From Dictyostelium discoideum (taxonomy: Eukaryota), in assembly GCA_000004695.1 (NCBI GenBank), contig CM000150.2, positions 2,304,001-2,368,000 on the forward strand: DNA of 64,000 nucleotides, written 5' to 3'. A program made the translations under genes and the position numbers. Position 1 is the first letter of the stretch; the number at the start of each line of letters is the position of its first letter. Shown here in pieces: positions 42,148-44,735 of the stretch. Below the pieces are notes generated by a model. It made no database searches and was not told the origin of the DNA. It saw nothing but the letters and a program-made list of their open reading frames with translations.

Positions 42148-44735
42148 ATGAATGATATCAATAATAACAATGTAAATAACAATAACAATAAAAATCATAT
42201 AAATTATAATATTGATGTAATAAGATCAAATTTTATAATATTGAAATCATTAGCTGAATCAATTAAACCTTCTTTTGGTCCAAATGGGATTTCAAAAATA
42301 ATAGTTGACGATAAATCAAAATCGTAAAGTATTATTAATACTTATAATTTATTATTACTTTTAAAATTTTTTTTATTATTATTCTATTTTCAATACCTAA
42401 AAAAAAAAAAAAATAAAAAGTTAAAAAAAAAAAAATTAATTAATTAATTAATAATCCATTAATTTTAATGATTTTGGATATTATTTATTTTTATTTTTTG
42501 TGGTGAAAAAAAAAAAAAGATATTTATCTGGTGTGTGGTTTTTTTTTTTTATCTCATCTTTTTATTCTTTTTCAAAAAAATAAAAAAAAAAAATTTAAAA
42601 GAATAAGATTTATTTGAATGTGTTAAATTTTAAAAAAAAAACCAGCAAAATAAAAATAAAAAAAAGATTGACCAAATTTCATTATATTTATTTGGTGGAG
42701 ATTTAATTAAATACTAATTAATTTATTTAAATTTTAATTTCCATTTTTTTTTTTTTTTTTTTTTTTTTTTGTGATTTATTAATTGATTAAAATCTAATGA
42801 ATTATTTAGAGTAATAATTAGTTCAGATGGGTTCGTTATTTTGAAATATTTTAAAATAAAACACCCAATTGGTAAATTAATAAAGCAACAATTTCTAAAT
42901 CAAAGTTATCTATTATATGGTGGAGTTTCAACATCTCTACTATTATCTTCTTCATTAATGGAGAATGCATTGAATCTATTATATAAAGGATTGGATTTAA
43001 ATTCAATTATAAGTGGTTATAAAATTGTAAATATACACCTACACAAAACAATTTAATATTGTTATTATTATTTTTTTTGGATTTTTAGGTTAAAATAATT
43101 TTAATAATAATAATAAAACTAAACTTTACTAATTTTATAATATTTAATATCTTTTTTTAAAAAAAAAATAATAAAAAAGAGTTTAAATTATTCCCTAAAA
43201 TATCTAAATGAAATGAAATCTATTAAATTAGATATTAAATTAAATGAAGATAATAATTTAAATAAAGATAATTTATTAAATATATTTAATATTATAGTTC
43301 AAGAAAAAGGAACAGAATTAAATAATAATGACTACTTAGTTTTAAAAGATATATTATCAGATTCATTAATTTCACAAAATCATTCAAAGAAATCAATTGA
43401 AACTAAATTGAATAATATAAACATTTCAATTGATCAAATTTATCAATATAGTGATTTTGAAATTAACAACAATGAAACATTATCAAAATTTGGTTTTAAA
43501 AATTATACAAATAATCAAATATCAACAACAACAACATCAAAAATTTTATTAATTGAAAATGGTCTAATAGTTGATAAAAATTATTGTTGTAGTTATTTAA
43601 ATGAAATTAAAGAAGAGGGGAATAATATTAATATATTATTTTTAGATTGTTCATTATCAAGAGACCAATCAAATATGCAAATTCAAGTTGAATTAGATTC
43701 ACCTGAAAAATTATTAAATTGGAAAATTGATGAAGAGAATTATTTTAAACAATTAATTACAACAATTATAAATGAATTACATGTAAATACAATAATATGT
43801 ACTGGTGATATTGATCCATTAGCACTTCATTATATTGATCAATTTAAAATTTTAGCATTTAAATTTGTACCATATTTAATATTTAAAAAATTATCATTAT
43901 CAACTGAAATAATTTATCATTTAAATTTAGATTCAATTTTACAAAATAAAAATAAAATAGTTTCAAAACATTATGAAAAAATAATATTAAATCCATTACA
44001 AACTATACTTTGTGAAAGTAGAAATTATTATTTTAAATTAAATCCACAACAACAACAACAACAACAACAACAACAACAACAACAACAACAACAACAACAA
44101 CAACAACAACAACAACAACAACAACAACAACAACAACAACAACAACAACAACAACAACAACAACAACAAAATAATAACAATAGAGATGATGCTGAAATAG
44201 AAATACAAAAAACAATTATAATATTATCAGAAACATATTTTCAATCTCAAGAATTAAAAAGATATTGTCAAGATCTTTTAATGGGTTTAAAATTATTAAA
44301 TAATAATAATAATAATACATTAAATTTTAATGAAAATGAAAATGAAAATAAAGAAATTTCAAATAAATATTACATTTTAGGTGGTGGAGAAGTTGAAAAG
44401 GTAATTGTAAAAAGTTTATTAGATATGTCACAACAAGAATCTTCAATTTTAAAATACAGTATTGAATCTTTTTCAAATTCATTTCAATCATTATTGTGTA
44501 TTTTAAAACTTGCCAAACCAACAGAATTATCACAAAAACAATTAATCTCACCTATAATATATGACAATTATTTTTTAAAAAAAAAACAAATTATTGATTC
44601 AACAAATTTGGTTCTTACTTTACTCAAAGGTAATGTGTTTTATTTTTTATTTTATATTTTTTTATTTTTTATTATATTTTACTAATTTTAAAAAAAAAAA
44701 AAAAAGTAAATGATATAATAAAGGAAAACCCATAA
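42148..44735 (+). CDS. Highly divergent TCP-1/CCT (group II chaperonin)-like protein with degenerate nucleotide-binding motifs and an inserted run of about 40 Gln; 4 exons join(42148..42323,42810..43026,43180..44629,44707..44735), 623 aa
   Basis: Exon 1 ...LKSLAESIKPSFGPNGISKIIVDDKSKS matches the chaperonin N-terminal block (A.a.kttLGPkGmDKmi.d..g.). Exon 2 SVIISSDGFVILKYFKIKHPIGKLIKQQFLNQSYLLYGGVSTSLLLSSSLMENALNLLYKGLDLNSIISGYKI aligns to TNDGATILK...HPAAK.L...QD.EVGDGTTSVVvLAgeLL..A..Li..giHPt.IisGy; note GDGTTS has become GGVSTS. Exon 3 carries ILGGGEVEKVIVKSLLDM...YSIESFSNSFQSLLCILKLA (the GGGA.E..ls..L...A.ALE.IP block) and (CAA)n at 44046-44170. Exon 4 ends ...LLKVNDIIKENP* (resembling the iLriDdiI C-terminal block). 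Donors GTAAAG at 42324, GTAAAT at 43027 and GTAATG at 44630; phases check and the total is 1872 nt = 624 codons. The 486-bp intron 1 is long for this genome. Confidence 0.65.

Follow-up and report, generated by a model that had tools for sequence, protein, structure and literature searches.

A divergent chaperonin-like gene of Dictyostelium discoideum with a degenerate nucleotide site, conserved across the dictyostelids

The animal proteins MKKS/BBS6, BBS10 and BBS12 are stand-alone, fast-evolving, three-domain group II chaperonin-like proteins (PMC10074162, PMC2846930, PMC5534436). They are reported to form no rings, to have lost or altered hydrolysis motifs and to pass BBS7 to CCT (PMC5534436, PMC2846930), and they derive from the CCT8 lineage (PMC2846930). 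Outside animals, just one "BBS12-like" chaperonin has been described, DDB_G0268902 of Dictyostelium discoideum, which lay outside all CCT families, found its best non-dictyostelid matches among archaeal thermosomes and was sister to animal BBS12 with good support in a maximum-likelihood tree, although the authors urged caution because organisms without cilia otherwise lack an obvious BBS12 (PMC10074162). Here we report the analysis of a gene at positions 42148 to 44735 of a 64,000-nucleotide (nt) stretch of D. discoideum DNA (GenBank assembly GCA_000004695.1, contig CM000150.2, positions 2,304,001 to 2,368,000 of the forward strand; "the window"), which encodes a protein of 623 residues and is, in our judgement with near certainty, a real, conserved and non-canonical chaperonin-like gene. 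The locus belongs to chromosome 1 (4.92 Mb) of D. discoideum AX4: flanking open reading frames (ORFs) are exact matches to AX4 proteins DDB_G0268890 and DDB_G0269024, and flanking fragments match abcG23 and XP_647050, all on that chromosome.

The four exons, when joined (176 + 217 + 1450 + 29 nt), gave a coding sequence of 1872 nt, that is 623 codons and a stop with the frame uninterrupted, and an unspliced reading of exon 1 met a TAA at 42325-42327. All three introns (486, 153 and 77 nt) run from GT to AG and have a GC content of 6.5-12%, compared with 19-23.5% in the exons. A previous reading of the stretch, made from the sequence only, had proposed the same exons, the same three junctions (42323/42810, 43026/43180, 44629/44707) and an ORF of 624 codons, and it was correct in all of these. 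The Tieghemostelium lacteum ortholog (DLAC_03990) is one intronless ORF of 1503 nt whose product was colinear with the D. discoideum protein across all three junctions and ended in LLQINDLIVI, and the P. violaceum protein ended in LLKVNDILSI. Introns 1 and 2 occupy the same codon positions in D. purpureum and in the ACTFIR relative (GCA_054859385.1, roughly 90% identical), and both proved to share the third, phase-1 intron of D. discoideum as well after their C-termini were re-modelled. Assembly GCA_054883475.1 was base-for-base identical to window 43101-44735 and carries an annotated 623-residue product with its stop exactly at 44735.

Comparison of the coding sequence of AX4 with that of the ACTFIR relative gave a synonymous divergence (dS) of 0.055 (17.5 changes over 330 sites) and a non-synonymous divergence (dN) of 0.014 (19.5 changes over 1422 sites), with a dN/dS of 0.25, and identity between the two was 96-99% in exons and 84-92% in introns; the gene is under purifying selection. 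Since the colinearity of the intronless ortholog, the kept intron positions, the independent annotation and the purifying selection all agree, we consider the gene model to be right: the four-exon gene is real, and it is neither mis-split nor a pseudogene.

Two annotated orthologs were found to have mis-modelled C-termini. In ACTFIR_004949 (P0001) the terminal exon was placed 4 kb downstream (L001:12379-16454), and in DICPUDRAFT_83999 (P0002) about 30 coding residues were spliced out (L002:12649-13100); at both loci the conserved short intron followed by VNDIIKENP and a stop (ACTFIR relative) or VNDIIGK and a stop (D. purpureum) is present. Intron 1 was long in every intron-bearing ortholog examined, with 486 nt in AX4, 512 nt in the ACTFIR relative (L001 10184-10694) and 666 nt in D. 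purpureum (L002 10172-10837), several times the usual length of a Dictyostelium intron. Its conservation between AX4 and the ACTFIR relative was no higher than that of other non-coding DNA, and an Rfam scan of the introns and of the 4.7 kb downstream of the gene returned no match.

The 623-residue protein scored 135.7 bits (E=2.6e-39) on the Pfam model PF00118 (Cpn60_TCP1), whose cut-off is 34.3, and it matched thermosome and CCT chains of the PDB with E-values as low as 2.5e-26. In these alignments the equatorial block of the N-terminus, the apical block and the C-terminal block follow one another in order, and a lid-region block falls on thermosome residues 224-343; the sequence-only reading had described blocks aligned in order with the equatorial and intermediate domains. 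Such E-values, and the presence of orthologs in at least eight further genomes or transcriptomes of dictyostelids, exclude a chance match. At the level of residues, ITNDGATIL was aligned with ISSDGFVIL, (G/A)DGT(T/K)T with GGVSTS and GGGAVE with GGGEVE, while RIDDII was aligned with KVNDII, which spans the last intron. The counterparts proposed earlier for TNDGATIL (SSDGFVIL) and GDGTT (GGVST), and the ILGGGEVE and LLK|VNDII motifs, were thus borne out, and the first motif, given as LGPNG, has to be corrected to FGPNG. An AlphaFold2 (AF2) model was built on the 97%-identical ACTFIR ortholog (P0001) with a 69-sequence alignment and reached a pLDDT (predicted local distance difference test) of 79.5 and a pTM (predicted template modelling score) of 0.81, superseding a run from a 4-sequence alignment (pLDDT 42.5). 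Foldseek returned full-length chains of CCT8, CCT5, thermosome and CCT1 for it with nearly equal E-values (1e-24 to 1e-22) over about 585 aligned columns and with TM-scores of 0.6-0.73 normalised to the target, the top chains being CCT theta (7nvm_q, 7nvn_Q). The predicted fold is that of a complete equatorial-intermediate-apical group II subunit with a helical lid region, and as modelled it discriminates between none of the candidate parents (CCT8, CCT5, thermosome, CCT1).

The full set of ATP motifs of group II chaperonins (LGPxG, TNDG, GDGTT[ST], the catalytic Asp and GGGxxE) is not intact. Retained are the Gly-Pro of LGPxG (in group 3 and group 4 species), the Asp of (T/S)xDG, the HP and the catalytic-position Asp of the intermediate helix (RYCQDLLM; Asp496). 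The Mg/phosphate-binding Asp of GDGTT has been lost, the motif reading GGVS[T/S] in D. discoideum, D. purpureum, P. violaceum, T. lacteum and one EukProt member, and it is degraded further in H. album and C. fasciculata; the broken ATP-binding motif that had been read from the sequence was confirmed. Among seven aligned species only D. discoideum has kept the GGGxxE loop, its counterparts in the other six being GMGTAE, GEGYCE, VKEPIE, ETESLE, NSGELE and NDNIS. About 30 residues are absent from the C-terminal equatorial segment, between the ALESIP-like helix and the (V/I)YEP-like strand (here IYDNY), a segment which flanks the nucleotide pocket in chaperonins.

The protein also carries low-complexity inserts in the intermediate domain, at residues ~141-160 and ~217-247 (the second of which corresponds to a stretch of low pLDDT in the modelled ortholog), and further inserts at residues 421-470, at the apical-to-intermediate junction, and at 505-528, between the catalytic helix and the GGG loop. 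The insert at 421-470 includes the poly-Gln run, which falls in the loop that leads from the last apical strand to the intermediate-domain strand TIIILSE. A 40-Gln insertion had been reported from the sequence, and the insertion is there with a length of 41 residues, encoded by a perfect (CAA)41 in AX4 and in the near-identical GCA_054883475.1. In the ACTFIR relative this site shows no more than QQQQ, with NDNNKNNS after it, and in the other species it is N-rich or lacks sequence altogether. So far as the aligned sequences go, the run is an incidental tract found only in AX4-type sequence and not a feature of the family. It represents the usual expansion of trinucleotide repeats, which is typical of the D. 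discoideum genome.

A profile of four orthologs was searched against 1.84e9 (1.84 billion) representative proteins. One member was found per species in D. purpureum (DICPUDRAFT_83999), P. violaceum (CYY_008192), T. lacteum (DLAC_03990), Heterostelium album (PPL_11423), Cavenderia fasciculata (DFA_07391) and Acytostelium subglobosum (SAMD00019534_122840), and two EukProt entries (P0133, P0025) belong to it as well, so that the family spans all four major dictyostelid groups. The four query orthologs scored at least 656 bits and single-domain outsiders at most 135 bits, with one tandem double thermosome and one merged gene model between the two tiers. The lower tier consisted of archaeal thermosomes and eukaryotic CCT theta, the latter forming a 30-member cluster among the best 150 profile matches (typed on sampled members). 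The other dictyostelid orthologs are only 52-25% identical to the D. discoideum protein, and the family therefore evolves very fast. Conservation within it peaks at residues 21-140 (N-terminal equatorial domain and stem-loop), 281-380 (the apical lid block SNMQIQVE(F/L)DxPEKLLxWKxDEE and the next strands), 481-500 (catalytic-helix region) and 601-620 (C-terminal strand).

Three of the long database entries met in these searches deserve mention on their own account. EukProt P0025 (892 aa) is fused to a downstream repeat-rich protein with an apparent transmembrane segment and lacks part of the apical domain, and is probably a merged gene model. In the representative search, P0024 (1057 aa) reads as a single ORF in which one complete thermosome-like unit follows another, and P0046 (1047 aa), known from match positions alone, is of similar length with chaperonin matches along its span; either could be a chaperonin dimer that is covalently linked in nature, or else a merged gene call.

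When scored against the eight CCT subunit models (TIGR02340-02347), the D. discoideum protein remained far below every cut-off (theta 108.4 bits/cut-off 455.9; alpha 95.1/800.2; epsilon 80.4/710.5; delta 67.3/695.35; eta 57.5/669.2; gamma 54.7/553.45; zeta 48/587.15; beta 34.1/522.15), and the same was true for the thermosome models NF041082/NF041083/TIGR02339 (alpha 114.6/450; beta 111.4/400; subfamily 109.6/671.1). The D. purpureum and T. lacteum orthologs were likewise far below every CCT and thermosome cut-off. Theta was the best CCT model for all three orthologs scored (87-108 bits), by small margins, and the thermosome models scored as high as theta or higher. Judged by these models, the protein falls outside all eight families of CCT subunits. 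Its earlier description as a ninth CCT paralog stands to the extent that it is non-canonical and outside the eight subunit families, while the label of a ninth CCT subunit, which would imply entry into the TRiC ring, is unproven.

Phylogeny gave no stable placement. In neighbour-joining (NJ) bootstraps of 200 replicates, with saturated distances and a tree without a verified BBS sequence, the dictyostelid clade was monophyletic in 200/200, but its position was unstable. It lies more than 2.2 substitutions per site from everything outside Dictyostelia, and its neighbour in 155/200 replicates was a long-branched CCT-like protein of Pharyngomonas; without such singletons it joined CCT theta in 54/200 (27%) replicates and otherwise non-theta sequences. 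The Pharyngomonas protein itself scored 239-246 bits on the theta and thermosome hidden Markov models (HMMs) and 106 on the dictyostelid HMM, and the jump of the clade to a protein that is far nearer to theta and thermosomes is the signature of long-branch attraction. The BBS12 placement appears fragile and may reflect such attraction. An unverified N-terminal fragment of BBS12 found no BBS entry in the PDB when used as query and scored 23.7/18.5/27.3 bits on the dictyostelid/theta/thermosome HMMs, showing no special affinity, which we treat as a lead and not as evidence.

The Pharyngomonas sequence (EukProt P0077, P. kirbyi, a heterolobosean; 705 aa) is a divergent CCT-like protein in its own right, with intact GDGTTS and GGGAAE, a Ser/Asn/Asp-rich insert of about 90 residues in the intermediate domain and scores that reach none of the CCT subunit cut-offs. 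Possibly it represents a BBS-type chaperonin in a protist.

The sequence-only reading had suggested that the gene might be unannotated or mis-split. This is not supported in view of the 623-residue annotation in GCA_054883475.1, the annotation of orthologs as hypothetical proteins in D. purpureum, T. lacteum, P. violaceum, H. album, C. fasciculata and A. subglobosum, and the published description of DDB_G0268902 (PMC10074162). The neighbourhood of dictyBase IDs, the matching description and the single-copy distribution make it very probable that the gene is DDB_G0268902, and thus one that is already known and in print since 2023 (PMC10074162).

Set beside the described systems, the dictyostelid protein resembles the animal BBS chaperonins in several respects, and a likeness in kind to the MKKS/BBS10/BBS12 class, which had been drawn from the sequence, seems to us a fair one. 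As in MKKS and BBS12, the Gly-Pro of the nucleotide site is kept (FGPNG here) and the hydrolysis motif is degenerate (GGVST here), by the criterion of PMC2846930. There are extra intermediate-domain inserts as in the BBS proteins, for which no positional homology is implied, and the nearest CCT subunit is CCT8. The dictyostelid protein differs from them in its shortened C-terminal equatorial segment and in its host, since Dictyostelia have neither cilia nor a BBSome and the known client is thus absent. CCT theta (CCT8/TCP-1 theta, TIGR02346) is the best eukaryotic subunit model, supplies the top Foldseek chains and forms the 30-member cluster among the profile matches, but the dictyostelid score is far below 455.9 bits, the GDGT(N/T) loop is lost and there are large inserts and a deletion. 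The archaeal thermosome gives the highest sequence scores outside Dictyostelia (PDB chains 2.5e-26; HMM 114.6 bits) and its fold superposes, whereas the dictyostelid protein stays far short of the 450-bit cut-off, has a degenerate ATP site, eukaryotic introns and no GGM tail, and showed no archaeal affinity in the published tree (PMC10074162). The mammalian CCT8L1/CCT8L2 are a comparable case of non-canonical paralogs that diverged from CCT and bear unusual substitutions where phosphate is bound (PMC2846930). They are mammal-specific retrogenes, much nearer to CCT8 and of separate origin from the dictyostelid clade.

The explanation we prefer is that the dictyostelid protein has lost ATP hydrolysis, probably along with most of its ability to bind ATP, and so would run no folding cycle of its own. 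It would serve instead as a chaperonin-shaped scaffold or adaptor, whose conserved apical face holds a specific client and whose conserved ring-contact elements may dock onto CCT subunits, in the way reported for animal MKKS, BBS10 and BBS12 with CCT. The client would be non-ciliary; because Dictyostelia are without cilia, it should not be the BBSome, and a role in BBSome assembly is not expected. We put this ATPase-dead scaffold forward tentatively, as the state of the nucleotide motifs suggests it at somewhat less than an even chance. For the explanation taken as a whole, that is the gene, its identity with DDB_G0268902 and the scaffold mechanism, we have to settle for a compromise figure slightly better than even.

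Several observations weigh against this explanation. The catalytic-position Asp, the Gly-Pro of LGPxG and, in D. discoideum, the GGGEVE are all still present, so that residual nucleotide binding is possible. The alignment behind the structural model was dominated by thermosomes and CCTs, and the predicted structure leans to their fold accordingly. The AX4 protein was absent from the protein collection, both by exact-sequence look-up of the 623 residues and in homology searches. The equation with DDB_G0268902 was drawn from ID neighbourhood, description and distribution and not from compared sequence, and searches for neighbouring dictyBase IDs and abcG23 IDs that would tie DDB_G0268902 to the locus found none.

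Among the other explanations, the one that survives best holds that the protein is truly orthologous to animal BBS12 and belongs to the BBS branch that arose from CCT8; it would have been inherited from a ciliated amoebozoan ancestor and kept after the loss of cilia and BBSome through a non-ciliary role, already present or newly gained, e.g. nuclear or cytosolic assembly. This concerns origin and is compatible with the scaffold mechanism. The published tree with DDB_G0268902 as well-supported sister to animal BBS12 speaks for it (PMC10074162), as do the derivation of the BBS chaperonins from the CCT8 lineage (PMC2846930) taken with theta as the best CCT model for three orthologs, the prominence of theta in both the 30-member cluster of the best 150 profile matches and the top Foldseek chains, and the kept Gly-Pro, degenerate hydrolysis motif and intermediate-domain inserts shared with BBS12/MKKS. 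It is opposed by the caution of the authors themselves, no other cilium-less organism having an obvious BBS12 (PMC10074162), by the more than 2.2 substitutions per site that separate the clade from all outside Dictyostelia, by its joining CCT theta in so few NJ replicates (54/200) against an attraction to Pharyngomonas in 155/200, and by thermosome models that equal or exceed theta. We consider such an orthology unlikely, and it seems less likely still that the family is a genuine BBS12 or BBS-branch member that survived hundreds of millions of years without cilia or BBSome.

A working ninth or alternative subunit of the TRiC/CCT ring, or an ATP-driven homo-oligomeric chaperonin of its own, would fit the full three-domain fold, the conserved stem-loop, C-terminal strand and lid-region block, and the retained catalytic-position Asp and Gly-Pro. 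The nucleotide site makes this improbable: Gly stands in place of the phosphate-loop Asp in four aligned species of groups 3/4 and in one EukProt ortholog, the motif is still more degraded in H. album and C. fasciculata, six of seven aligned species have a decayed GGG loop, and some 30 residues by the nucleotide pocket are deleted. Moreover, an identity of 25-52% between the dictyostelid orthologs and the D. discoideum protein shows a very fast evolution, unlike that of ring subunits, all subunit models scored far below their cut-offs, and TRiC is a fixed arrangement of eight subunits.

Horizontal acquisition of a thermosome gene from Archaea was considered since the best non-dictyostelid matches are archaeal thermosomes, here as in PMC10074162, but it is very improbable: the identity to thermosomes is only ~17-25%, the published tree has no archaeal affinity (PMC10074162), and thermosome profiles are the least derived group II models, which any very divergent eukaryotic sequence will match first. 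The three spliceosomal introns, with positions conserved between species, the host-like base composition and the presence of the gene in all dictyostelid groups rule out a recent archaeal transfer. A decaying pseudogene or gene-prediction artefact in AT-rich low-complexity DNA, to which the very low exon GC (19-23%), the long N and Q runs and the absence of the AX4 protein from the searched collection might point, is no less improbable, given 623 open codons over four exons with canonical splice sites, intact-frame orthologs in at least seven named species that are deeply diverged from one another, a dN/dS of 0.25 and exons more conserved than introns. Both explanations were rejected on the evidence of introns, composition, distribution, open frame and dN/dS.

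Table 1. Coordinates of the exons, introns and sequence motifs of the chaperonin-like gene, in positions of the window
Feature	Position	Strand	Remarks
Exon 1	42148..42323	+	ATG at 42148 is the first ATG of the ORF; residues 1-58 plus 2 nt
Exon 1 content: N-rich leader, first equatorial helix, FGPNG	42274-42288 (FGPNG)	+	FGPNG is the counterpart of LGPxG (thermosome alignment)
Intron 1	42324..42809	+	486 nt, GTAAAG..TTTAG, phase 2, 12% GC
Exon 2	42810..43026	+	residues 59-131; stem-loop
SSDGFVIL	42820-42843	+	exon 2
KHPIG	42859-42873	+	exon 2
YGGVSTS, degenerate phosphate loop	42916-42936	+	exon 2; in place of GDGTT[ST]
Intron 2	43027..43179	+	153 nt, GTAAAT..AAAAG, phase 0
Exon 3	43180..44629	+	residues 132-614; intermediate and apical domains, C-terminal equatorial part
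Apical block SNMQIQVELDSPEKLLNWKIDEENYFKQL	43669-43755	+	exon 3; best conserved apical block of the family
(CAA)41 microsatellite	44047..44169	+	within exon 3; 41-Gln run, residues 421-461
Helix QELKRYCQDLLMG	44248-44286	+	exon 3; retained catalytic-position Asp496
LGGGEVE	44377-44397	+	exon 3
IIYDNYFLKKK	44554-44586	+	exon 3
Intron 3	44630..44706	+	77 nt, GTAATG..AAAAG, phase 1, 6.5% GC
Exon 4	44707..44735	+	...K|VNDIIKENP; stop TAA 44733-44735; counterpart of the group II RIDDII C-terminal strand

Downstream of the gene, 4.7 kb of DNA (window 44736-49412) contained no plausible ORF, no gene call in GCA_054883475.1 and no Rfam match, which is unusually long for an intergenic region of D. discoideum. 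Within it there are islands that are 96-99.6% identical to the ACTFIR relative (about 45000-45500, 46250-46750, 47500-47750 and 48250-48500), as conserved as the coding exons, and the region could hold regulatory DNA or an undescribed noncoding RNA. The next downstream gene (49413-51776; also 51315-51548) encodes a 787-aa protein dominated by poly-Asn tracts, which has 788 aa in the near-identical assembly; repeat length therefore varies between AX4-type genomes. The sole tRNA in the window is a tRNA-Glu (TTC) at 62931-63003. The ACTFIR assembly (JBTAPF010000019.1), which is labelled D. discoideum, had a DNA identity to AX4 of 88-93% over 23 kb of synteny (window 32119-55000), far more divergence than is expected of conspecific strains. 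A 'Dictyostelium cf. discoideum' assembly also exists, and a cryptic species may have been deposited under the D. discoideum name.

The existence of the gene and the question of its relation to the BBS chaperonins were already in the literature (PMC10074162). What is added here is a verified gene model, a family that extends through all four dictyostelid groups and whose nucleotide site is degenerate in each, a poly-Gln run limited to AX4-type sequence, two published ortholog models with wrong C-termini, and a BBS12 placement that appears fragile. The family offers a natural example of a chaperonin fold that, to judge from its motifs, has given up its ATPase and yet has remained selected throughout an entire lineage of eukaryotes. 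Should the family prove to be related to BBS12, Dictyostelium would provide a cilium-free system in which to study roles of BBS-type chaperonins beyond BBSome assembly. If it is a member of the BBS branch, BBS-type chaperonins would predate animals and would have had an ancestral, cilium-independent job, e.g. the CCT-assisted assembly of another complex, which could then be dissected in a haploid, genetically tractable amoeba.

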